NCBI RefSeq assembly: GCF_000195755.1 | Contig: NC_005863.1 | Location: 1-32,000, forward strand | Reading direction: 5' to 3' | Length of the DNA stretch: 32,000 nucleotides | Source: Nitratidesulfovibrio vulgaris str. Hildenborough | Lineage (GTDB): Bacteria; Desulfobacterota; Desulfovibrionia; Desulfovibrionales; Desulfovibrionaceae | Shown: positions 1,740 through 26,592 of the stretch, piece by piece | Layout of the letters: each line of letters starts with the position of its first letter | How positions within the stretch are numbered: position 1 is the stretch's first letter | Made by a program: the position numbers and the translations under genes | Notes under the pieces: generated by a model | Databases searched by the model: none | What the model was told of the DNA's origin: nothing | What the model saw: only the letters and a program-made list of their open reading frames with translations

Positions 1740-4700
1740 ATGCCCCCTGAAGCGACAGCCAACGCAAGCCCTGCCGGGCAACAACCGAAACGCAGGCGCG
1801 TTACGCTGGCAGACAGATTGCGTCAGGCCAGCAAGATGCAGTTCGAGTCGCCGGAACAGATTGCGGCCCGTGAAGCGCTGGAGAAGATGAACCGTGAGTC
1901 GGCACTGGCGACACCCGGTGACACCGACAGTCACGGGGTGTCTTCTGCTGTCACGCCTGACAAACCGACGACACACCAACACAAGGCCGTTGCCGAATCC
2001 GCGAAGGACGCCCCTTCGCCCCCCACCGTGACCAGCCCTTCCCCTGCCATAGAGGACGACCTCGGGCATGACACGTCGGCGGCCACGTCGGCGCGGGCAA
2101 GCACCGGTGAAGACGCCACCTGCGCCGCTTCTGGCACCACTCCCCGTGATGACGATGCCGGTCACCCCCTGACTGGCGCCGTCACCCGTGACGTCACCAC
2201 CCCAGAGACGCGTACTGTCACCCATGACACACCAGTCACCCCCGTGACAACAAAAGCCACGGGTGACTGCGATAGACACCCCGCGACAACAGCTGTCACC
2301 AGTGACACGGACTCCGAAACAGTGACCGCGACGGACACCAGTGACGCAAAACGTCACCCCGTGTCACCTGCGGCCACAGATGCCTCCAACAGTCACCCAG
2401 TGACGGCAGACGTCACCCCTGACGTCACCCCTGACAGCAACGCTCACCGGACGACAATGGCCGTCACTGGTGACAGCACGGTCACCCCCGACGGAGAACT
2501 CCCGGCTTCTTCAGCATCGACCCGCGAGCCCAAGACCGTGAGCAGCGCTGCCGACAGGGCATACACCGCCCCCCACGCCAGCCGGGGGAGGGACGCCGGA
2601 GACGACACCGGTCACCCCATGACAGACACCGTCACCAGTGACGGTACGTCACCCCCTCCTCCCCTATTCGTGCCCGCACATGGCCCACTGACGCACGGGG
2701 CGGTCGCGGCTACGGACACGGCAGGGGCAGCGACGGTCGAAGAAGGCCCTGCACACGACGTGCAGCCCATGCGGCAGGCTGAGGCATCGTCTGCGCCCCA
2801 TGCGTCGCGCGAAGCGCCCACAGGCACGGCGTACGCGGGCACAGAGGCAGGAAGTGCACACGGGCACGACCGCAGCACCGCGGGCCTTGCGACGACCGCA
2901 GAGGAAACGCCCTGCACGCCATGCGAAGCGCCAACCCCCGAGACGGCAGCCACACTGCATGACCGTTCCGCTGTGAACGCTCGCGCCATGGGGACGGAAA
3001 AGGTCACGGGGACAGAGAGAGTCACCCCTGACCCAACCGGTCACCCCGTGACCGCGGCAATCACCGTACGGCACGATGAAGGCCCCCTCCCCGGAGCTGA
3101 GACTCCGGGGGTATCTGGAGCAGAATCACCCCATGTGACGCCCCATGTGACGCCCCGAGTGACGCCCCGAGTGACGCCGGATGCGACGCAGGATGCGACG
3201 CCGGAGGCCTCTGGCAGTACATTGCCGGGTGCGACATCCGACCTGACGGGGGGCCTGACCGGGGGCCCGTCCGTGACAGCAGCGGGCGCAGAAGCAGACG
3301 CGGGCACAGAGACCGGCGCGCCGTATGCGCGGGCTGCCGCCTCCAAGGACCAGTCGGATGCGACACGCCCCGGAGATGACATCGCACCGTCACATGCCGC
3401 ACGGCAGGCAGCGGGTATCAGCGACGGCGCAACCACCGTCTCCGACGTCACCCCCCTGTCAGCCCACGACACGATGTCTTCTTTCGTCACGGATGACAGC
3501 CACGGTCACCCCATGACGGACAACGTCACCACTACCGAGCCTACCGTCCATCAGGCCATGGCCCATGGGATGGCTCCGGTGGTGAATAGCCCGAAGCCAG
3601 AGGGCGGTGTGCATGTGCGCAGCCCCCTCCCCGCCCACGACCTTGCCGGGCACATGGGGCACAGTGCCGAGCAAGCCCCCCAGACAGGGAACGTCACGGA
3701 TGACGCATCACGTCACGGGGTGTCGGCAGAAGTCACCCCTGACATGTCCGCCACGGCCCCAGTCACCCCAGTCACCCCAGTCATCCCAGTCAGGCCGGGC
3801 ACTCCGGGCCCGCTTGCAGGGCTGACCACATCGCGCACGCTTCTCAACAGCACCTTGCAGGTCAACATCTATAATATGGTGCTTGAGGCGGGCGGGGCCG
3901 TGTTCACCTCGGGCGGGCAGATGGCCAAGCGCTTCGACGTGGCCGTGCGTTCGGTGCGCCGTACCCTCGACCTCATGGAGACCAAGGGCATCCTCAGCCG
4001 CGAATCGGGGGCGGCGGGCATGACGCTGCGTCTGCTCATGGACCCCCTTTCGGTGATGGGCATCCATGCCAGCGGTCTGCCCGCAGGTGTCATCGGCGCG
4101 GTGCATGACGCCGGGGCAGTCCATGACGGCATCATGGGCGGGCACGCCCCATACCGGACGGGAAGAGGTCCGGACATGCCCACGTTCCCGTCGGGTTCGC
4201 CGGCGGCACACACGCCCGAATTTGTGGCAGGGCACGGCACGGGCGCGGAGGGCAGGGGAGGGTATCCCGCAGCGGGGATGCCGCAGCCCCATGCCCCGCA
4301 CCCTTCGCCGTCACCCCGTGACAGCTATGGTCACCCCTCGTTCATGCACGCCGCACCCCATCCGGTACAGACCTCCCCGCACCTGAACGACCAGCAGGGC
4401 AGGGCGGCGAACCCCGGCGACATGGTCGCGCCGCACAGGCCTGCCGCTGCCCATCAGATGCACGGCGGCATGGTGCCACGGCATCAGCCCGGGGCGACAC
4501 AGACGGGGCAGGCAGCGAGCGTGTCAGGTGCTGGCACACCGGGCACCACGGCGGGAGACGCCTTCGGAGTGCCGTCCGGCGGCCCCGGGGCGGACATGGC
4601 GTTCTTCCGCGAACGCTATCCCCATCTCGCCCGTGCGGGCTTCGGCCCGGCACAGGTGAAGCAGGTGCGTGAGGCACTGGCATCACGCGACCTGCCCGAC

Positions 4701-5180: not shown

Positions 5181-5432
5181 ATGACAGGCAGGGTGACACC
5201 GTCGGTCACGGGGTGACAGACCAAGGATGACAGCGAGGGACACGGGGTGGTGACAGGTCACCTGACACGGGGCGACACCCCATGACAATCCGCCCCTCGA
5301 AACGTCACCGGTGACAGGACAGGGCCCGTGACGCGACACGTCCCCCATGACAGCGCATGTCGCGAGGTGACATGTGGAGCATCTGAAACAAAAACAATGG
5401 GTTGGGTACAAGCCCGTGACATGGGCGGTCAC
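5181..5432. repeat. Non-coding iteron-like array of GTGAC/GTCAC pentamers; candidate centromere or origin iterons
   Basis: Strict GTGAC or GTCAC at 5193, 5205, 5213, 5250, 5257, 5304, 5311, 5328, 5366, 5416 and 5428, plus ATGAC/CTGAC/GCGAC variants. Inverted copy of the 26-bp composite unit at 5192-5217. Palindromes GTCACGGGGTGAC (5205-5217) and GTCACCGGTGAC (5304-5315). My rough base-composition estimate is under 1 strict pentamer expected by chance in 250 nt. Confidence 0.6.
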
Positions 5433-5451
5433 CCCCCTCTTATATAAGGAA

Positions 5452-5479
5452 GATAGATAGAAAGAAGAGTCTATCTATC
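5452..5479. promoter_or_regulatory. Perfect 9-bp inverted repeat in an AT-rich patch just upstream of the HU-like gene; candidate operator or DNA-unwinding-adjacent element
   Basis: GATAGATAG (5452-5460), N10, CTATCTATC (5471-5479). Preceded by TATATAAGGAAG. The HU-like ATG is at 5490. Confidence 0.4.
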
Positions 5480-5489
5480 GCAGGAACAC

Positions 5490-5843
5490 ATGGAAAAGAC
5501 GAGCAAGCCGCAACTGGTGGCCTACCTGCGGGAAAGGGCACACCTCACGGAAGAGCAGGCGCTGATGACGCTCAAGGCCTTGTATCTCTTCTCGCTGGAG
5601 CATCTTGAGAAGGGCGTGGGCGTGGTGCTGCCCGACATCGGGCAAATCAAGCCATCCATGGGCAAGGGCGGGGTAGGGCGCAACTTCCGCACCGGAGAGG
5701 CGACGGTCATCGAACCCAAGCTCAAGCTCACGTTCAGTGCGTCCAAGGCACTGAAGGAACCGCTGGACGCGGCGCAGCGCAAGGCCGCGAAACAGCGCGA
5801 CGCGAAGTCGCAGGACGGCGCGACGGGCGACGGACGGGCGTAG
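5490..5843 (+). CDS. HU/IHF-family nucleoid-associated DNA-binding protein with a basic C-terminal tail
   Basis: 117 aa. The beta-arm signature GRNFRTGEATVIEPKLKLTFSASKALKE matches the GRNPxTGE...I pattern of HU/IHF proteins. N-terminal helical segment KPQLVAYLRERAHLTEEQA. Confidence 0.85.
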   Translation: MEKTSKPQLVAYLRERAHLTEEQALMTLKALYLFSLEHLEKGVGVVLPDIGQIKPSMGKGGVGRNFRTGEATVIEPKLKLTFSASKALKEPLDAAQRKAAKQRDAKSQDGATGDGRA

Positions 5844-8900: not shown

Positions 8901-10445
8901 TCAGCAGCCGTCGCCGCCCCCACGGCAGCACCCCTTGGAGACCCCGCCCTTGCGGGCACGGAAGGCGTTCACGTCAAGCCCCGCAAGCACTGCGCCCACC
9001 ACGTCTTCGACGATGCCCGCGCATTCCGTCACGGTGATGCCGTGTTCGCGCAGGATGGCGCGCGGGCTTTCACCACAGGCGGCGGTCAGCACGGCGCGGC
9101 AGTCCTTGAGCATGTCCGCGAGGGCGTGCCAGCGTTCAGGGCCGCAGCCGGGGCGCGGGGTGGCGCGTTCTTCGAGAAGGACGGGCACGGGCATGTCCGT
9201 TGCGTCTGTGCCCGCACGGGTGGCGTCCTTACCGCAGGTCGTGCCGTGGGTTGTGCCGCAGACCGCGCCGGAATCCCCCCCGGTGCTTCCTGTGCTGTCC
9301 GTCCTCTTGTCGTTCTTGTCCTCCTCGCTGTCCCAAGGGGTGGCCCCCGCCTTGCCCCATGAGTTACCACCAGTACTGCCCGGCACATCGCCGCTTCCGG
9401 TACCTTTGGCGTCGTTCCGACCGGACGCAGCCTCGCCTCCGGTCGTTGTGCCGCCCTTGCCACTGCGGGCAGGCCCAAGGCCCCATATCTGCAACCGCGT
9501 GGCCTCGCCGAGGTGCTGGTTCACGAGCATTCCCTCGCGGGTCGCCACTGCCACGAAGGGCCGCGCCCCGGCCCCGTCGTCCTTCTGTGCGCATTCGCGC
9601 AGCAGCGGGGCCAGTTCACGCGACCTGTCGTGGTGCAGCAGCCCCACGGCGTCGGCGCGGCAGCGTCTGCAATGGGTCATCTGGCGGATGTGCGCCCCCG
9701 CCAGCCTGCGCGCTTCGCCCACCGCTTCGGGCGAAGGTTCGGCCACCTGCGCCAGCGGGGTGTCGTGGGTGGGGTGCAGGGGGATGATGTTCATGAGCGT
9801 CGCGCCCAGCGCGGCGACCTTCTCTGCCACCTGTTCCACATGTCCGTCGTTGATGCCCGGCACGAGGATGGTGTTGACCTTGACCACGATGCCGCGCTGC
9901 ACCAGCCCCGTCAGCGCGGTCAGCTGCCGTTCGAGCATGAGTTCGGCGGCGGGCCGCCCGCGCCACACGACCTTGCCGTCGCGCACCCATGTGTACAGGC
10001 GTGCGGAGATGTCGGGGTCGACGGCGTTGATGGTGAGGGTGGCGTGGGTGACCCCGTTGGCGGCAAGGGCGTCGAGATGCGGGGGCATGCCCAGTCCGTT
10101 GCTGGAAAGGCAGAACAGCATGTCGGGATGCCGCTGGCGGATGAGGCGCAGCGTCTCCAGCGTGGCGGCAGCGTTGGCCATGGGGTCGCCCGGCCCGGCG
10201 ATGCCCGCCACGCGGATGGCGGGTTCGCGTTCAAGGACGCGGTCGAGGTAGTCCGCGGCCTGTGCGGGGGTGAGCACCCCGCTGGTCACGCCGGGGCGCG
10301 ACTCGTTGACGCAGTCGTACTTGCGGTTGCAGTACCCGCACAGCACGTTGCACTTGGGTGCCACGGGCAGGTGGACGCGACCGCACGACTGGGCGGCCTT
10401 CTCGGTGAAACAGGGGTGGCTTGTGGTGTCGGGTGTGCAGGGCAT
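8901..10445 (-). CDS. nifB: NifB, radical SAM FeMo-cofactor (NifB-co) biosynthesis protein with a NifX-like C-terminal domain
   Basis: Radical SAM motif CNVLCGYCNRKYDC. Conserved GIAGPGDPMAN, SSNGL, TINAVDP and VLVPGINDGH blocks. SD AGGAGGA. A ~90-aa G/T/S/D-rich insertion (nt ~9192-9470) interrupts the C-terminal NifX-like domain. Confidence 0.95.
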   Translation of the reverse strand: MPCTPDTTSHPCFTEKAAQSCGRVHLPVAPKCNVLCGYCNRKYDCVNESRPGVTSGVLTPAQAADYLDRVLEREPAIRVAGIAGPGDPMANAAATLETLRLIRQRHPDMLFCLSSNGLGMPPHLDALAANGVTHATLTINAVDPDISARLYTWVRDGKVVWRGRPAAELMLERQLTALTGLVQRGIVVKVNTILVPGINDGHVEQVAEKVAALGATLMNIIPLHPTHDTPLAQVAEPSPEAVGEARRLAGAHIRQMTHCRRCRADAVGLLHHDRSRELAPLLRECAQKDDGAGARPFVAVATREGMLVNQHLGEATRLQIWGLGPARSGKGGTTTGGEAASGRNDAKGTGSGDVPGSTGGNSWGKAGATPWDSEEDKNDKRTDSTGSTGGDSGAVCGTTHGTTCGKDATRAGTDATDMPVPVLLEERATPRPGCGPERWHALADMLKDCRAVLTAACGESPRAILREHGITVTECAGIVEDVVGAVLAGLDVNAFRARKGGVSKGCCRGGGDGC

Positions 10446-10457
10446 GTCGCTATCCTC

Positions 10458-11972
10458 CTACATGTAGCCGTAGCCCACGGGGCTGGCGGTCTGATGGCGT
10501 TCGATGAGGGCGTTGACGATGCGGTCGTACAGGGCGAGTGCGCCGGTGTAGCCCACATGCAGCAGACGCTGCCCGCCGAAGCGGTCGTGGACGGGGAAGC
10601 CCGTGCGCACCAGCGGGATGCCCCACGCGCGGGCGTAGCGGTAGCCCTTGCTGTTGCCCACCAGCAGGTCGGGGGCGAGGGTGCCCGCACGTTCGGCAAT
10701 CTCGTGGAAGTCGACCCCTTCGCGGACTTCGGGCAGGTCGGGCATCAGCCCCCCGCAGACGGCGGCCACACGCGCGGCAAGGCCGCACCCGCGTGCGCCG
10801 GTGGCCACCAGCACGGGGCGTATGCCCGTCTCGGCAAGCATGGCGCACAGCCCCGTGACCATGTCGGCATCACCGTAGACCACGGCCCGCTTGCCCGCGA
10901 CGTACTTGTGCCCGTCCACGAGGGCGTCGACCAGCCTGCCGCGTTCAAGCATCATGCGCGGGGGCATGGCGGTGCCGGAGATGCGTTCGAGGGCCTCCAT
11001 GAAGGTGTCGGTCTCGCGCAGGCCCACGGGCACGCCCACCCTGAACAACGGCACGCCGTGACGCGCGTGCAGCGCGGCCCCGGCGGAGGGGCGGCTGCCG
11101 AGGGGGTCGCCCATCTCGACCACGGCCCGCGCACGGCCCAGCGCCCGGATGTCGTCGAGGGGCGTACCCCCGGCGGGGATGGGCGCGTAGGCTTCGAGGC
11201 ACGGGGCGTCCAGCGTCTCGGAGATGTCGGGCAGGATGACCGGCGCAAGGCCGAATGCCTCCATCACGTCGCGCAGGTGGCGTATGTCGGCGGGGGAGAG
11301 TAGCCCCGGCAGCAGACAGGTGCGGCCCGTGGAGACGGTGCCCGACGTGGTGCCGGATATCGCACCGGGCGTGGTGTCCGACACGGTGGCACCGGCGGTG
11401 GCAGGGCCGCGTGCGGCTGCGCCGGGGGCCGCTTCGTGAGGGGCACCCGATATGACACCGGACATGGTGCCGGACATGGTGCCGGACATGGCACCGGGCG
11501 TGGACTCCACCAGTTGTTCCGTCACGGCACGCACGGCGTCGTACCAGCCGTCCATGTGGGTTCCGGCGAAGCTTGGCGTGCTCACATGCACGATGTCCGG
11601 CAGGTCGAGGTCGCCGAATTCGTTACGGAACTCGCGCAGGATGCGGCCCACGTCGTCACCGATGGTCTCGGTGAGGCAGGTGGTGGCCACGCCCACGAGA
11701 CGCGGGTGGTACTTCTTCATGACATTGAGCAGCCCCTTCTTGAGGTTGGGGCCGCCGCCGTGGATGGCGTGCTTCTCGCCCAGTGCGGAAGAGGCGATGT
11801 CCATGGGTTCGCGGTAGTGGCTGATGACGTAGCGACGCATGTAGGTGGCGCAGCCCTGCGAACCGTGCAGGAAGGGCACGGCCCCTTCGATGCCCCTGAA
11901 GGCCAGCGTCGCGCCGAGGGGCGTGCAGAGTTTGCATGCGTTGGTGGTGGCGATGTGGTTACGGCCTGCCAT
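10458..11972 (-). CDS. nifN: NifN, FeMo-cofactor scaffold subunit
   Basis: NACKLCTPLGATLAFRGIEGAVPFLHGSQGCATYMRRY is the typical NifN N-terminus. I prefer the start at ATG 11972 (G-rich SD, 14-nt overlap with the nifE stop). The ORF stays open to 12236 through the 27-bp repeat, which would add MPTVPKGTD-type repeats. An internal MSGT-rich insertion sits at nt ~11320-11510. Confidence 0.9.
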   Translation of the reverse strand: MAGRNHIATTNACKLCTPLGATLAFRGIEGAVPFLHGSQGCATYMRRYVISHYREPMDIASSALGEKHAIHGGGPNLKKGLLNVMKKYHPRLVGVATTCLTETIGDDVGRILREFRNEFGDLDLPDIVHVSTPSFAGTHMDGWYDAVRAVTEQLVESTPGAMSGTMSGTMSGVISGAPHEAAPGAAARGPATAGATVSDTTPGAISGTTSGTVSTGRTCLLPGLLSPADIRHLRDVMEAFGLAPVILPDISETLDAPCLEAYAPIPAGGTPLDDIRALGRARAVVEMGDPLGSRPSAGAALHARHGVPLFRVGVPVGLRETDTFMEALERISGTAMPPRMMLERGRLVDALVDGHKYVAGKRAVVYGDADMVTGLCAMLAETGIRPVLVATGARGCGLAARVAAVCGGLMPDLPEVREGVDFHEIAERAGTLAPDLLVGNSKGYRYARAWGIPLVRTGFPVHDRFGGQRLLHVGYTGALALYDRIVNALIERHQTASPVGYGYM

Positions 11973-13845
11973 GGTGTGCCCCCCCTTCGGTGGCGTTTCC
12001 TTCGGTGAAAAGGTCGTGCGGGGCGTGTCCTGCGGGATTGGCGGGACAGTCGGCATCTCCATCCCCTGCGGGATTGGCGGGATGTCCGTCCCTTTCGTGT
12101 GCGGGGGCGTCTGCGCCGAGGTGTCTGTCCGCACGGTCTGCGGGATTGTCGGCTTGTCCGTCCCCTTCGGGACAGTTGGCATGTCCGTCCCTTTCGGGAC
12201 AGTCGGCATCTTCATCCCCTGCGGGACAGTTGGCATGTCCGTCCCCTTCGGGACGGGCAGCCGCCGGGAAACGGCTGCGCGGCGTGAAACGCCACACCGG
12301 GCTGGTGACGGAGGCGTGTACCTCGCGGGCGAAGTTGTACATGCCCTCGAAGCCCGCCAGCGCGATCTTGCGTTCGTGGTTGTGGTCGCAGAAGCCGATG
12401 CCCAGCTTGTGGGCGATGGGCCTCTCCTTCACGCCGCCCACGAAGATGTCCACGTCGAGGGTGCGGACGAAGTGCGCCAGTTCAAGGGCGTTGGCGTCGT
12501 CCACGATGATGGTGCCGGGGTCGCAGATGGCTTCGAGTTCGCGGTAGTCCTCGTCGGTGCCGGTCTGCGAACCCACCAGTGCCACCTGCATCCCCAGATG
12601 CCTGAACGCCTTGATGAGCGAGAACGCCTTGAACGCGCCGCCCACGTAGATGGCGGCCCGCTTGCCTTCGAGGTCGCGCCGCAGCTGGCGCAGCCGGGGC
12701 ATGAGGGTGGCTATCTCCTCGCGCACGAGGTCGCGGGTGCGTTCGACGATGCCGGGGCACACCTCGCGGAAGTGTTCGGCGACGTTGTAGAGCGAGTCTG
12801 CCATGTCCTCGATGCCGAGGTACGAGACGCGCAGCGTGGGCGTGCCGTAGGCTTCGCGCATCATGCGTGCCAGCGGCATGGTGGCACCGCTGCACTGCAC
12901 GAGGTTGAGCGCAGCCCCGTGGCATCGGCGCAGGTCGTCCACGCGCCCGTCGCCGGTGATGTTGGCGACCACCTGCACCCCCATGCGTTCGAGGTAGCCG
13001 CGGATGATCCACAGTTCACCGGCGAGGTTGAAGTCGCCGAGGATGTTGACCGAGGCGGGACCTATGCCGTCTGTCGCGCCCGTGCCGGTGAGGGTGAACA
13101 TGGCGGCGCAGGCCGCTTCGTACCCTTCGCGCTTGTTGCCCTTGAAGCCCTCTGACTGCACGGGCAGCACGGGGATGCCGTGGCGTGCCGCGACGCGCTT
13201 GCACACCGCGCCGATGTCGTCGCCGATGAGACCCACGATGCAGGTGGCGTAGACGAAGGCTGCCTTGGGCGCGTGGCGGGTGATGAGTTCATCGAGGGCC
13301 GCTTCCAGCTTGGGTTCGCCGCCGAAGATGATGTCGCGTTCGCCAAGGTCGGTCGAGAAGCTCAGCCTGTGCAGTTCAGGGCCGGACGAGAGTGCACCGC
13401 GGATGTCCCAAGTGTAGGCGGCGCAGCCCACCGGCCCGTGGACGAGGTGCAGCGCGTCGGCGATGGGGTAGAGCACCACGCGCGAACCGCAGAACACGCA
13501 GGCACGCTGGCTGACCGCCCCGGCGAGACTCTCGCGGTTGCAGGCGAGGTCGATGGGGCCTTGCCCCGCCCGGTGTACCTGCCCGCGACGTTCTTCGAGC
13601 AGCCCGTCGGAAGCAGGGGCAGGCGGGGTGGCAGGCGGGGTGGCAGGCGGGGTGGCTGGTGCCATGGCGGGCGCAGGGGCGGCAGCTGCCTCGGCAGAGA
13701 CCTTGCCCCTTGTCACGCCTGCTGCCGCGCCTGCTGCCATGCCCGCTGTCGTACCGGCTGCCGGCGCTGCTACGGGGTGAAGAGTGCCGTCCGTCCTGTC
13801 TGTGGACCCTTCGGGAGTGGGCATGACGCCGCAGTGTCCGTTCAT
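11959..13845 (-). CDS. nifE: NifE, FeMo-cofactor scaffold subunit, with low-complexity N-terminal extension and a Cys/His/Asp-rich repeat tail
   Basis: Core CVFCGSRVVLYPIADALHLVHGPVGCAAYTWDIRG and downstream oxidoreductase/nitrogenase component-1 blocks. Preferred start is ATG 13845 with SD AAGGAAGG; the ORF is open to 14217 but that extension looks non-coding. The stop at 11959 means the tail encoded by the 27-bp repeats is in frame. Confidence 0.9.
   Translation of the reverse strand: MNGHCGVMPTPEGSTDRTDGTLHPVAAPAAGTTAGMAAGAAAGVTRGKVSAEAAAAPAPAMAPATPPATPPATPPAPASDGLLEERRGQVHRAGQGPIDLACNRESLAGAVSQRACVFCGSRVVLYPIADALHLVHGPVGCAAYTWDIRGALSSGPELHRLSFSTDLGERDIIFGGEPKLEAALDELITRHAPKAAFVYATCIVGLIGDDIGAVCKRVAARHGIPVLPVQSEGFKGNKREGYEAACAAMFTLTGTGATDGIGPASVNILGDFNLAGELWIIRGYLERMGVQVVANITGDGRVDDLRRCHGAALNLVQCSGATMPLARMMREAYGTPTLRVSYLGIEDMADSLYNVAEHFREVCPGIVERTRDLVREEIATLMPRLRQLRRDLEGKRAAIYVGGAFKAFSLIKAFRHLGMQVALVGSQTGTDEDYRELEAICDPGTIIVDDANALELAHFVRTLDVDIFVGGVKERPIAHKLGIGFCDHNHERKIALAGFEGMYNFAREVHASVTSPVWRFTPRSRFPAAARPEGDGHANCPAGDEDADCPERDGHANCPEGDGQADNPADRADRHLGADAPAHERDGHPANPAGDGDADCPANPAGHAPHDLFTEGNATEGGAHHGRP
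12029..12260. repeat. 27-bp tandem repeat array at the nifE/nifN junction
   Basis: Three clean units GGGACAGTTGGCATGTCCGTCCC(C/T)TTC at 12169-12195, 12196-12222 and 12223-12249, with degenerate copies back to ~12029. Two minus-strand frames are open across it. Confidence 0.9.
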
Positions 13846-14179: not shown

Positions 14180-14228
14180 GCGGCGTGGCGTGCGGCAGTC
14201 GCCTGGGGCGGGGTCACGGAATCAGCTC

Positions 14229-14291
14229 GAATCCGCCCGGATGTTCCCGGAATCCGTCCGGATGTTCCCCGAATCCGTCCGGATGAGGTCC
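14229..14291. repeat. Three 21-bp tandem direct repeats immediately downstream of the ferredoxin gene
   Basis: GAATCCG(C/T)CCGGATGTTCCC(G/C) at 14229-14249 and 14250-14270, with a diverged third copy at 14271-14291. Confidence 0.85.
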
Positions 14292-14800: not shown

Positions 14801-16186
14801 CTACATGACCAGTTCGAGGGTGTCTTCGGGGGCCGTGTCGCGGTCCTTGCGTTCCAGAAGGGTGTTGATGACCTGCGAAAGCAGGTGCATGCCGCCCATG
14901 TAGCCCACCTTGGGAAAGTGGCTGTGGCCCACGCGGTCGAGGATGGGAAAGCCGAAACGCACCAGCGGCGTGTCTTCGGCCTGCGCGATGTACTTGCCGT
15001 ACGAGTTGCCCACCAGCAGGTCGACCGGGGCGGCCTTCACCCTCTGGTGCAGGTGGAAGAGGTCGTTGGCGGCGCGCACCTCATAGTCCCACGTGGCCCC
15101 TGCCTTCTCCATGACCTCGGCGATGCGGCGTTCGAAGGCCTTGCCCGGCGTGCCGGTGACCACGACCGTGGGCCTCATGCCCGCCGAGACGAGGAACTCC
15201 ACCAGCGGTATCACGATGTCGGGGTCGCCCCATGCCGCCACCCGCTTGCCGAAGAGCAGCGACTGGTAGTCGGTCATCATGTCCACCAGCTTGCCGCGTT
15301 CGTCCTTCAGCGACCGGGGCACGGTCATGCCAGTGGTCTCTTGCAGGGCGGCGAGGAACCTGTCCGTGGCCAGCACGCCGATGGGGGTGTCGAGCAGCCT
15401 GTAGGGTACGCCGCACTTCTTCTCCAGTGCCTTGGCCCCGGCCTCTGAGGCCCATGCGCCAAGGGCGAGGGTCGCCATGCTGTCGCCACTGCGGGCGAAG
15501 TCGGCCTGTGTGGTGCCCCCGGCGGGGTACATGCGGTATTCGCCGGTCTGCGGGGTGTCGAGCACGTCGGATGTGTCGGGAAAGACCACGCCGTCCACGC
15601 CCATCTGCGCCAGCATGCCCTTTATCTTGCGCATGTCCGAGGGTTCGACGAAGCCCGGAATGACGTTGACCTGCCCGGCAGCCTGTTTGCCCGTGCCCGC
15701 GGCGAGGTAGTTCACCATGCCCTCGACCATGTTCGAGAAGCCGGTGACGTGCGACCCCACGTAGCTTGGCGTGTTGCAGTGGATGACCTTCTTGCCCTGC
15801 GGCACCGTGCCGTCTTCCATCGCCACCTTGGTGATGGTGGGGATGTCGTCGCCGATGGTCTCGGAGAGGCAGGTGGTGTGTACGGCCACCATGTCGGGGT
15901 CGTAGACCTGGAAGATGGTCTTCAGTGCCTGCCGCAGGTTGGGGCCGCCGCCGAACACGCTCGCGCCTTCGGTGAACGAGCTTGTGCTCGCCATGACGGG
16001 TTCGCGGAAGTGACGGGTGAGATGGCTGCGATGGTACGAACAGCAGCCCTGACTGCCGTGGCTGTGCGGCAGGCAGCCGTGGATGCCGAGGGCCGCGTAC
16101 ATGGCACCGATGGGCTGGCATGTCTTGGCCGGGTTGACGCGAAGTGCCGAGCGTTCAGCATAGGCGGCGGGTGTGTGCTTGAGCAT
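14801..16186 (-). CDS. nifK: Nitrogenase MoFe protein beta chain
   Basis: 461 aa. KTCQPIGAMYAALGIHGCLPHSHGSQGCCSYHR and following NifK blocks. SD AGGAGG. Confidence 0.97.
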   Translation of the reverse strand: MLKHTPAAYAERSALRVNPAKTCQPIGAMYAALGIHGCLPHSHGSQGCCSYHRSHLTRHFREPVMASTSSFTEGASVFGGGPNLRQALKTIFQVYDPDMVAVHTTCLSETIGDDIPTITKVAMEDGTVPQGKKVIHCNTPSYVGSHVTGFSNMVEGMVNYLAAGTGKQAAGQVNVIPGFVEPSDMRKIKGMLAQMGVDGVVFPDTSDVLDTPQTGEYRMYPAGGTTQADFARSGDSMATLALGAWASEAGAKALEKKCGVPYRLLDTPIGVLATDRFLAALQETTGMTVPRSLKDERGKLVDMMTDYQSLLFGKRVAAWGDPDIVIPLVEFLVSAGMRPTVVVTGTPGKAFERRIAEVMEKAGATWDYEVRAANDLFHLHQRVKAAPVDLLVGNSYGKYIAQAEDTPLVRFGFPILDRVGHSHFPKVGYMGGMHLLSQVINTLLERKDRDTAPEDTLELVM

Positions 16187-18594: not shown

Positions 18595-18876
18595 GTCCGT
18601 GTCCTCCTGTGCGGATGGGGGCAGATAGTGGGCGGATGGTGGGGGATGGTGGCCTGATGGTAGCGGGTGCGGCTTGCCTGTCCGCCTGCCCGCCTGCCCG
18701 GTTGTCCAGTCTGTCCGCCTGCCCGGTTGTCCCGTGTCCCGTCGTCCTGTTATCCCGTTGCCCGGTATGGCCTGTCGGGGCTGTCCCGTGACGCGGGTGA
18801 CGCGGATGCCGTGGATGATACGGGCGACGCGGATGTCGCGGGTGACACCGGTGCCGCCACCTTGCATCGGGCCGCG
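18595..18876. repeat. 282-nt repeat-rich spacer between nifH and nifI1
   Basis: Direct repeats GTCCGCCTGCCCGGTTGTCC (two copies within ~18680-18735). GACGCGG and GTGAC motifs at 18788-18846. On the sense (minus) strand it carries many GGG runs. Confidence 0.8.
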
Positions 18877-19950
<1,074 letters not shown>

Positions 19951-20019
19951 TCACCTGTGGAGGCTTCCGGCACGCTTCGGTGAGGTCTGTCCGCGTAGCG
20001 TCCGTTCGCTTCGGTAAGG

Positions 20020-21805: not shown

Positions 21806-21884
21806 TCAGGTATCAGGTGACGGTCAGGCTGACGTCAGGCGACGTCAGGCGATGGGCAGGTGATGGGCAGGCAGACGTCTTCAG
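21806..21884. repeat. Helically phased (T/G)CAGG repeats
   Basis: TCAGG/GCAGG starting at 21806, 21813, 21824, 21835, 21845, 21856, 21867 and 21880. Most spacings are 10-11 nt. Includes the palindrome TGACGTCA at 21830-21837. Confidence 0.7.
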
Positions 21885-25338: not shown

Positions 25339-26592
25339 CTACCAGAGTGTCCACGCCCCGGTGGCGACGACCCACAGGCCGAGCAATCCGTTGGTGACGG
25401 CGTGGGCGACCACGCAGCACATCACGCTGCCCGTGCGCAGGGCCACGAGGTTGTACGCCGCGCCCGCCGCCATGCCCGCCACGATGAGGTTGTGTTCGAG
25501 TCCGAACAGTATCGTCACGGCGATGAACGATGTCGCATGGAACCGCGTCAGCGGCACGGTGCGGAAGTCGCCGCCCTGAAGGTGGCGCAGCAGGAACGAC
25601 CGCCAGAAGAGTTCTTCGGCGAGGGGCACCAGCAGCGTCGCCCCGATGAAGCGGATGGTGAGCAGGGCGGGTCTGCCCGCGTCGCCCCATGCCTCGTGCG
25701 CGAAGGGGGCGGGTTCGCCCATGCGTGCCCACGGCACGTCCAGCGCCAGCCATGCCGCGAAGACGGCCACCCCCACCACGATGGCGAAGGGCAGTCCGCG
25801 CAGGTCGGCCTTCGCGAACCGGAGTTCGGTGCAGCGGGGCAGGCACACCGCCAGCACAAGGCCCACACACAGGGCCTTGACCGGGTACAGCCCGCCTGCG
25901 AAGTCGCCGTAGGTGGCAAGCGTGGTGGAGGAGATGCCGAGCATGGAGGCCGCTTCGACCACGAGGACGAAGGCCATGTACGCCGCGAAGGGCGCCACCC
26001 GCCACGCGATGGCGGCTACGGGGGCGGAGGTGGCCTTGCCTGCACCCGTGGTGGTGTCAGCCCCTGCGGTATTCGCGAGCCCGGCCGGTTCGCCGGGACC
26101 GGAGGGCCTGTCGGGGTCAGGGGCAGGGTCGTGCGCAGGGTCGGGTGGGGCTTCTTCGGTCACGCCCGTGCCGACGGGGTGACGCGCGCTGCCGGGGGCG
26201 GCGTCTCCGGACACCGGGGCGTCTGCATGGGGTGCGCTTCCGGGGCGGGCAGCAGAGGCCATGCTCTCCGCGTTGCCCGGTGTGTTTCGTGGCGTGTTCG
26301 CGGGCGCGTCCGGTGACGTGTCCGGTGACGAGCCCGGTGGCGTGCCGGGTGCGGTGCCCGGTGCGGTATAGGGCGATGTTACACGGTTCGTGTCCGGATG
26401 CGCATCCGGTGATGCCGTTTCGGGTGACGTGCCCCATGGCGTGGCGTGTCCCGTATCCGGTGATGCCGTGCCCGGTGCCGTGTCCGCTAGAGAGTCTGGT
26501 GACGTGTCTGGTGACGTTTCGGGGTGAGCGTCAGATCGAGCGTCCGGATGAACTTCAGGGTGCGCAGTCGGGGGGGTCTTCATGGGGGGCAC
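25339..26592 (-). CDS. CPBP-family (CAAX/Abi) intramembrane glutamic protease with a long low-complexity N-terminal region
   Basis: Signature motifs EELFWRSFLL (EExxxR), FGLEHN (FxxxH) and VAHAVTNG (HxxxN) within a multi-TM C-terminal half. The first ~110-190 aa are S/P/D/T/A-rich. An alternative start at ATG 26262 (SD GGAGAG) would make 26263-26631 a repeat-rich spacer. Confidence 0.8.
   Translation of the reverse strand: MPPMKTPPTAHPEVHPDARSDAHPETSPDTSPDSLADTAPGTASPDTGHATPWGTSPETASPDAHPDTNRVTSPYTAPGTAPGTPPGSSPDTSPDAPANTPRNTPGNAESMASAARPGSAPHADAPVSGDAAPGSARHPVGTGVTEEAPPDPAHDPAPDPDRPSGPGEPAGLANTAGADTTTGAGKATSAPVAAIAWRVAPFAAYMAFVLVVEAASMLGISSTTLATYGDFAGGLYPVKALCVGLVLAVCLPRCTELRFAKADLRGLPFAIVVGVAVFAAWLALDVPWARMGEPAPFAHEAWGDAGRPALLTIRFIGATLLVPLAEELFWRSFLLRHLQGGDFRTVPLTRFHATSFIAVTILFGLEHNLIVAGMAAGAAYNLVALRTGSVMCCVVAHAVTNGLLGLWVVATGAWTLW

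Follow-up and report, generated by a model that had tools for sequence, protein, structure and literature searches.

A repeat-encoded, strain-variable C-terminal tail on NifE at the nifE/nifN junction of Nitratidesulfovibrio vulgaris

Introduction

Why does a nitrogenase assembly protein carry some 110 extra residues encoded by a tandem repeat, and what keeps their reading frame open? The question is raised by the megaplasmid of Nitratidesulfovibrio vulgaris (Hildenborough/RCH1 type), whose nif region is contained in a stretch of DNA of 32,000 nucleotides that was analysed as a whole (henceforth the window). Here nifE, whose product belongs to NifEN, the scaffold where the nitrogenase cofactor matures, does not end with its conserved core and instead runs on in frame through an array of 27-bp repeats until it stops inside nifN. 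D. vulgaris Hildenborough is a model sulfate reducer. Its nitrogenase operon lies on the megaplasmid at DVUA0015-DVUA0007 (PMC4641369).

Results

The NifE tail and its repeat array

On the minus strand, the nifE frame is open from the end of the conserved core (around 12277, ...VHASVTSPVW) to a TAA codon at 11959-11961. The C-terminal tail (11962..12291, minus strand) comprises 110 codons counted after SPVW, or 105 residues past the end of the match to the hidden Markov model TIGR01283 at residue 647 of the open reading frame (ORF), and contains 4 Cys, 9 His and 22 Asp/Glu (RFTPRSRFPAAARPEGDGHANCPAGDEDADCPERDGHANCPEGDGQADNPADRADRHLGADAPAHERDGHPANPAGDGDADCPANPAGHAPHDLFTEGNATEGGAHHGRP). Translation in the nifE frame yields peptides such as DGHANCPEGDGQADNPADR and HLGADAPAHER, and the four Cys residues lie in the units GHANCPAG, DADCPER, GHANCPEG and DADCPAN. 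A sequence-only reading of the window had claimed that the nifE frame has no stop until 11959 and that the repeat is translated as about 110 residues with four Cys-Pro units, which is exactly what we find.

The underlying array, traced with Tandem Repeats Finder (TRF), repeat families and a consensus search, occupies 12029..12265 (minus strand). Its best-kept 27-bp units lie at 12151-12254 (TRF: 3.9 copies, 83% matches, score 159), with degenerate units beyond them to about 12029. The consensus unit, allowing up to three mismatches, has 3 matches at the junction against 0.00 expected, and the 27-bp repeat is beyond chance. Openness in two frames, on the other hand, is unremarkable in this GC-rich DNA: the nifE frame stays open in 13% of mononucleotide shuffles and both frames in 1.2%, and nifE, nifN, nifK and nifB (64-67% GC) show open runs of 99-449 codons outside their own frames. 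The existence of the tail therefore rests on the position of the stop codon and not on open-frame statistics. GC content at third codon positions (GC3) over the tail DNA is 0.58 in the nifE frame versus 0.89 in the cores, and the rare codons TGT, GAT and GGA are used. In an AlphaFold2 model for which 33 sequences were aligned, residues 524-628 have a predicted local distance difference test score (pLDDT) of about 30 and no secondary structure, in a model that is mediocre overall (mean pLDDT 59.7); the tail is thus predicted to be intrinsically disordered.

Tail alleles among strains

Sizing of the repeat across isolates, which had been proposed along with the claim, could be done from sequence data. 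Strain genomes, metagenome-assembled genomes (MAGs) and metagenomes yielded 7 different junction haplotypes at the DNA level and 13 alleles of the tail, which encode 53-119 residues after SPVW with 1-4 Cys and 5-11 His. All alleles start with RFTPRSRFPAAARP, end with NPAGHAPHDLFTEGNATEGGAHHGRP (...GGAHHGRP*) and use a common stop codon, and the DNA length differences between haplotypes are multiples of 3 throughout. The tails of 110, 101, 92 and 83 residues found in different strains bear out the expectation that repeat number would vary in 9-residue steps without breaking the frames, and other in-frame step sizes occur too. With tandem units of 27 bp (a multiple of three) inside an ORF and a copy number that is polymorphic over 13 alleles, the array has the properties of a coding variable-number tandem repeat (VNTR). 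The 26 sites that vary by single-nucleotide polymorphism (SNP) between strains fall 8/8/10 on the three codon positions, with no signal of selection in either frame while GC3 favours the nifN frame, in a comparison that has little power given the ambiguous alignment of repeats.

The allele series also bears on whether the long nifE frame might be an assembly or sequencing error, a possibility that the sequence-only reading had itself raised, or nifE a pseudogene. Such an artefact would fit the PLSDB gene table of the RCH1 plasmid (L100, NC_017311.1 3256-10156), an incomplete table that lists no nifE coding sequence (CDS) with a protein accession. Against it, an independent Logan contig (L081, one of 23 Logan contigs read that carry the window NifN) equals the window without difference over 8515 bases, and the annotated NifE proteins of DP4 and CP116248 include the tail. 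Since the 13 alleles, from isolates and metagenomes alike, keep frame and stop, a sequencing error or frameshift is excluded, and the artefact or pseudogene reading is effectively refuted. At the nifB position, the same incomplete RCH1 table shows just a 97-residue NifB/NifX-family fragment; low-complexity inserts may lie behind pseudogene or split calls in this table.

Palindromes in the repeat units

Each unit contains a palindrome that reads, in mRNA sense, (C/U)GUCCC-GAAG/GAAA/GCAG-GGGAC(G) and is predicted to form a hairpin of 5-7 bp. On the minus strand, the hairpin cores lie at 12242..12253 (UCCC-GAAG-GGGA, unit 1, where the stem extends to 7 bp), 12215..12226 (UCCC-GCAG-GGGA), 12188..12199 (UCCC-GAAA-GGGA, converted to window coordinates from 3274-3285 of L081), 12161..12172 (UCCC-GAAG-GGGA) and 12062..12073 (UCCC-GCAG-GGGA). 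The junction folds with a minimum free energy of -140.9 kcal/mol versus -125.4 kcal/mol in shuffles (z = -2.8), and the motif TCCCGNNGGGGA is present in 4 copies at the junction and 0 elsewhere in the window, where 0.1 would be expected.

Read in the nifE frame, the hairpin is TGT CCC GAA GGG GAC GGA, or Cys-Pro-Glu-Gly-Asp-Gly, and its Cys codon, TGT, makes up 2 of the 37 Cys codons in the neighbouring cores. The Cys-Pro...Gly-Asp motif is a translation of the palindrome, so that the Cys count tracks the number of one unit subtype per allele. The pair flanking the stem is retained (as G-C, G-U or A-U) in 12 of 13 distinct hairpin instances, which is weak evidence of selection on structure because these instances are copies of one another, and hairpin number differs widely among strains. 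Palindromic tandem units of this kind are a plausible substrate for slipped-strand mispairing.

An Rfam search of the window returned no family, and a promoter and terminator scan returned nothing meaningful, with two terminator-like hits on the non-coding strand that are within expectation. We considered and rejected a dispersed palindromic element of the REP (repetitive extragenic palindromic) type, as motif and consensus unit occur solely at the junction within the window. In L095, the closest relative by NifE core (see below), the region 1540-1640 has a palindrome (CTCCCC-GGCG-GGGGAG) in the last nifE codons and another (TGACTT...AAGTCA) in the 47-nt spacer between nifE and nifN. The hairpin repeats of N. 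vulgaris may have expanded from a seed of this type.

The nifN start and the nifE/nifN junction

The nifN CDS from its canonical start (10458..11972, minus strand) encodes a 504-residue protein that falls in the N. vulgaris cluster and is present exactly in NCBI and UniRef. Its ATG (11970-11972) lies upstream of the nifE TAA (11959-11961), giving a 14-nt overlap of the two genes at 11959..11972 on the minus strand. The sequence-only reading had noted that the repeat DNA is also open in the nifN frame, as MPTVPKGTD repeats, upstream of 11972 and had regarded the junction as ambiguous. The two open frames are indeed there: the nifN frame is open from ATG 12236 to ATG 11972 (upstream stretch 11973..12236, minus strand, MPTVPQGMKMPTVPKGTD...), and it is open in 6 of the 7 DNA haplotypes. 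The ambiguity, by contrast, is largely settled in favour of ATG 11972. DP4 carries an in-frame stop, and the upstream nifN-frame ATGs shift position between alleles, so that the conserved start expected of dual coding is missing. Shine-Dalgarno pairing is -10.6 kcal/mol at ATG 11972, close to nifB (-10.2) and nifK (-12.1), and weaker at the upstream ATGs (-2 to -7.2). NifN of L095, whose gene follows the 47-nt spacer, begins with MSGRSHVSTTNAC, homologous to MAGRNHIATTNAC of the window. The NCBI and UniRef protein records use the canonical start as well, and one Logan call uses ATG 12236, giving 592 residues. We conclude that the question of the nifN start is largely resolved for canonical ATG 11972, as far as these sequence comparisons go, and that the upstream stretch is probably not translated as part of NifN.

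Codon usage was tried as a decisive test of frame and dropped: with a GC3 of 0.83 against 0.58 for the nifE frame, the nifN frame of the array has the more native look, yet relaxed GC3 (0.67-0.80) is also seen in other low-complexity inserts of certain frame.

A run of seven G (G7; 11979..11985, minus strand) serves as the nifN Shine-Dalgarno element and is invariant in the 7 DNA haplotypes. Loss of one G from this run in silico would fuse NifE, tail and NifN in frame (...TEGGHTMAGRNHIATTNAC). The nifE stop overlaps the nifN start or lies at most 30 nt away from it in 49 of 77 relatives.

Distribution of the tail and the NifN extension of the sister clade

The sequence-only reading had suggested checking the tail for conservation in relatives. 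In 77 related loci (other Desulfovibrionales and relatives), NifE extends 0-43 residues past the core (median 13), so the tail is not conserved. Among the best 120 of 7667 NifE homologues (E<=1e-100), the tail is covered only by the N. vulgaris cluster P0016 (32 members), and the remaining proteins have 452-551 residues, nearly all of them 452-502. When the tail by itself was run with HMMER exhaustively against 1.84 billion representative proteins, the single match was an unrelated protein with PEGDVYVPV repeats and no true homologue; a separate homology search with the tail alone gave no match, and Pfam matched neither the tail, nor the nifN-frame peptide, nor the sister-clade NifN extension described below. 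Judged by these sequence searches, the tail is confined to N. vulgaris.

In a tree built on the NifE core only, N. vulgaris and L095 are sister to a clade of L001, L002, L097, L098 (N. oxamicus) and L099 (sp. D1). L095, with a NifE core 89% identical to that of the window, lacks the long tail. In the sister clade, NifE ends 13 residues past the core (...GADA*), with a Shine-Dalgarno element and an ATG 10 nt on, and it is NifN that is extended: the proteins of N. oxamicus, sp. D1, sp. 1201_IL3209 and two MAGs or SRA contigs have an N-terminal extension of 76-110 residues with 6-12 Cys (L001, about 5346-5625; L002; L097, 1549-1780; L098, 2434-2765; L099, 4436-4690). It consists partly of CA(D/N)G tandem repeats, and its ends, MTLD[FY]V... 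and ...GKPGKAPRPKRPDF, are kept across species. Tail and sister extension share the junction, a comparable length and a low-complexity composition rich in Asp, Gly, Ala and Cys with short tandem repeats; they differ in that the extension sits on NifN and not on NifE, has more Cys and conserved ends, and shows no similarity in sequence order to the tail. The raw alignment score of 44 between them, versus 22 for the nifN-frame peptide, reflects likeness of composition, and homology does not rise above shuffles at the protein or DNA level. A search with the extension found short NifN fragments only. Because the outgroups have neither tail nor NifN extension, two independent gains are most parsimonious on the NifE tree, although a single origin followed by re-framing is conceivable.

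Other low-complexity tracts and the surrounding locus

Four low-complexity tracts of nifENB, the tail among them, vary between N. vulgaris strains, and all are encoded on the minus strand. NifE also has an Ala/Pro/Thr-rich N-terminal extension (ATPPATPPATPP...; 13603-13845, with repeats at 13618-13673 and 13716-13763) of 73-81 residues among strains. NifN has an internal insert (MSGTMSGTMSGVISG...; 11322-11504, with a 12-bp repeat at 11442-11497) of 61-73 residues; members of its cluster have 500-516 residues, and the 450-residue NifN of L095 leaves no room for such an insert. NifB has a Gly/Thr/Ser/Asp-rich insert (9168-9476) of 52-121 residues between its radical-SAM (S-adenosylmethionine) and NifX-like domains, and the protein has 457-526 residues in N. 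vulgaris strains versus 420-427 in sister species. Variable tracts in three proteins, without a matching gain of length in the close relatives examined, point to a replicon-wide mutational tendency rather than to one specific to the NifE C-terminus. Short tandem repeats are dense over the 32 kb, where TRF reports 49 rows, many with periods of 9, 12 or 21 (for example 3129-3205, 18611-18857, 19879-19962, 21813-21872 and 26310-26517); this density suggests a general propensity of the replicon for repeat expansion in frame. Between the ferredoxin gene and nifE there is a 21-bp tandem repeat of 2.8 copies (CGAATCCGTCCGGATGTTCCC, 14228-14285); it precedes the likely start of nifE and falls within the long stretch by which the nifE-frame ORF extends upstream.

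The minus-strand gene order is nifK (14801-16186), a small (2Fe-2S) ferredoxin gene, nifE, nifN and nifB (8901-10445), which is the context expected for NifE, with nifK upstream and nifN and nifB adjoining on the same strand. The nifE CDS as called (11959..13845, minus strand) runs for 628 residues from ATG 13845 to the TAA, and the identical contig has the same 628-residue call. Its start is uncertain: Shine-Dalgarno pairing at ATG 13845 is -7.5 kcal/mol, and gene callers differ between this ATG and a later one chosen by NCBI in DP4 and other strains. The protein scores 582.5 bits with the NifE equivalog model TIGR01283 (cutoff 505.1), of which positions 24-455 of 459 align to residues 219-647 of the nifE-frame ORF. 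The nif region is 100% identical to that of plasmid pDEVAL01 of N. vulgaris RCH1 and 97-98% identical to those of the DP4 and CP116248 plasmids.

Discussion

With moderate confidence, we favour the view that the tail is a slippage-generated, tolerated and disordered appendage whose frame keeps nifE and nifN translationally coupled. Whole palindromic units (27 bp, or 9-bp sub-units) would be gained or lost by replication slippage or by unequal recombination, and the frame would survive since the unit lengths are multiples of three, producing a coding VNTR with many alleles within one species. As the nifE frame is first closed 14 nt into nifN, ribosomes would read through the entire array and terminate right at the Shine-Dalgarno element and ATG 11972 of nifN. 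Termination-reinitiation coupling of the two genes would thereby be kept, as most relatives would keep it through a short overlap. We infer that slippage is the cause of the tail, that coupling is the reason for its open frame, and that the peptide lacks a specific metal function; its Cys-Pro...Gly-Asp motif would be dictated by the palindrome in the nucleic acid.

Several observations weigh against this view. No allele lacks the tail altogether, and each of the 13 retains 5-11 His and one Cys-Pro or more. The SNP comparison, with its 26 variable sites and ambiguous repeat alignment, has little power. A GC3 of 0.83 in the nifN frame, above the 0.58 of the nifE frame, would also fit a history in which this DNA was translated in the nifN frame. 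Coupling is not obligatory, since the gap between nifE and nifN exceeds 30 nt in 28 of the 77 relatives. Finally, a conserved, Cys-rich NifN extension stands at the same junction in the sister clade, and a Cys-bearing appendage at this junction could therefore be useful.

The metal-ligand-like composition that the sequence-only reading saw in the tail leads to the rival that we take most seriously and still consider unlikely, namely a metal- or cluster-handling arm of the iron-molybdenum cofactor scaffold, in which the side chains of Cys, His and Asp would temporarily retain Fe, Mo, sulfide or a cluster. By analogy with the variable His-rich tails of nickel chaperones, copy number would tune the capacity of such an arm close to the NifE/NifN interface. 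The ligand content of the window tail and the Cys-Pro and His residues kept in every allele are consistent with it, as are the Cys-rich NifN extension of the sister species and its likeness in composition to the tail. Yet tail variation points to no defined metal site: Cys number ranges from 1 to 4 within one species, the Cys residues are spaced 8-9 apart, each in a Cys-Pro dipeptide, the sole adjacent His pair is the C-terminal HH, and the clusters seen in metallochaperone tails (His runs, HxH, CxxC) are absent. The claim is weakened further by SNPs without codon-position bias, the predicted disorder, a motif derived from the palindrome with a rare TGT Cys codon in the hairpin stem and a Cys count that follows one unit subtype, absence of the tail from all other NifE examined, and the lack of sequence-order homology to the sister extension, for which an independent origin is most parsimonious. 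A little less likely again is a broader version, in which the junction would have gained Cys-bearing repeat modules at least twice, at the NifN N-terminus in the oxamicus/D1 clade (6-12 Cys) and at the NifE C-terminus in N. vulgaris (1-4 Cys, 5-11 His), each acting as a metal-, sulfide- or cluster-handling arm with its capacity set by repeat number; in sulfidic habitats, the modules might take the place of accessory proteins like NifQ, NifX or NafY.

Other readings shift the function from the peptide to the RNA or to the nifN frame. That junction hairpins modulate mRNA stability or processing, or slow ribosomes and so set the NifE:NifN ratio with the peptide as a by-product, fits the hairpin of 5-7 bp in each unit (GAAG, GAAA and GCAG loops), the folding energy of the junction (z = -2.8), the flanking pair seen as G-C, G-U and A-U, and the palindromes that L095 has in its spacer and at the 3' end of its nifE. 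We hold it improbable nonetheless, given that the hairpins were copied from one another and their pair conservation is not independent, that their number varies widely among strains, and that they belong to no Rfam family and their motif is absent elsewhere in the window. Dual coding, with NifN also initiating at ATG 12236, 12209, 12182 or 12056 to give a Pro/Thr-rich extension and an overlap of up to 278 nt, appears more improbable still. The nifN frame is open in six of seven haplotypes with a GC3 near the 0.89 of real genes, each unit offers a Shine-Dalgarno-like GGGGA followed by an ATG, one Logan call starts at ATG 12236, and NifN of the sister clade is extended; against this stand the DP4 stop, the drifting upstream ATGs, their weaker pairing by bases that lie within hairpin stems, and the canonical start shared with L095 NifN and used in NCBI and UniRef. 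Very improbable, in our judgement, is a tail left over from, or poised for, a NifE-NifN fusion through loss of one G or a +1 ribosomal shift at G7. The in-frame product of the one-base deletion and the natural NifE-NifN fusions (NF011047; the 919-residue chain of PDB 9i0g/9i0h) make it thinkable, whereas the G7 run is invariant in 7 of 7 haplotypes and doubles as the nifN Shine-Dalgarno element, and no fused allele was found among those recovered.

The tolerated, slippage-generated tail that we favour can be set beside several known systems. In its core, the protein is a NifE of the NifEN scaffold (TIGR01283; Azotobacter vinelandii 3PDI), with a match of 582.5 bits and the arrangement nifK-fdx-nifE-nifN-nifB; it differs by about 105-110 extra C-terminal and about 70-80 extra N-terminal residues that are unseen in other NifE examined. 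In the natural fusion chain 9i0g/9i0h, the NifN-like half begins about 40-55 residues after the NifE half, which indicates that sequence between the NifE and NifN cores can be accommodated. The window genes share with such fusions the extra sequence between cores, and a one-base change in G7 would make them one; unlike a fusion, they lie in separate frames with a stop (TAA 11959-11961), and the score with NF011047 is 400.7 against a cutoff of 1229. With slipped-strand coding VNTRs, the array has in common a unit that is a multiple of three, a polymorphic copy number and palindromic units that favour slippage. It departs from classical contingency loci in that it has no on/off switching and lies in a housekeeping metallo-assembly gene and not in one for a surface antigen.

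His- or Cys-rich tails are found on the metallocentre assembly proteins UreE, HypB, SlyD and CooJ. Like them, the N. vulgaris tail is a low-complexity, length-variable terminus rich in His and Asp (and Cys) on a metal-cofactor protein; it differs in having no His runs or CxxC, a Cys number of 1-4 among strains and a distribution in one species. A heme-regulatory motif consists of Cys-Pro followed by a hydrophobic residue. We rejected this assignment for the tail, whose motifs CPAG, CPER, CPEG and CPAN have no hydrophobic residue after Cys-Pro.

The locus combines two known kinds of element, a NifE protein and a coding VNTR. We found neither the tail and its polymorphism, nor the palindromic units, nor the sister NifN extension described in the literature searched. 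Tail-bearing NifE proteins have long been in public databases (for example ABM30107.1). The strain-variable tail, like the tracts in the NifE N-terminus, NifN and NifB, offers a ready marker for strain typing. Automatic annotation, too, may be misled by such low-complexity tracts, and they may be why the RCH1 table is without a nifE CDS and has nifB only as a NifX-like fragment. Metal binding by the tail or by the sister NifN extension, should it occur, would add a new accessory element to cofactor assembly; the finding is otherwise of moderate curiosity for specialists in nitrogenase and sulfate reducers, and of greater interest only in that case. For the NifE family, it means that the C-terminus tolerates about 50-120 extra residues, which is useful for tagging and fusion designs in nitrogenase engineering.

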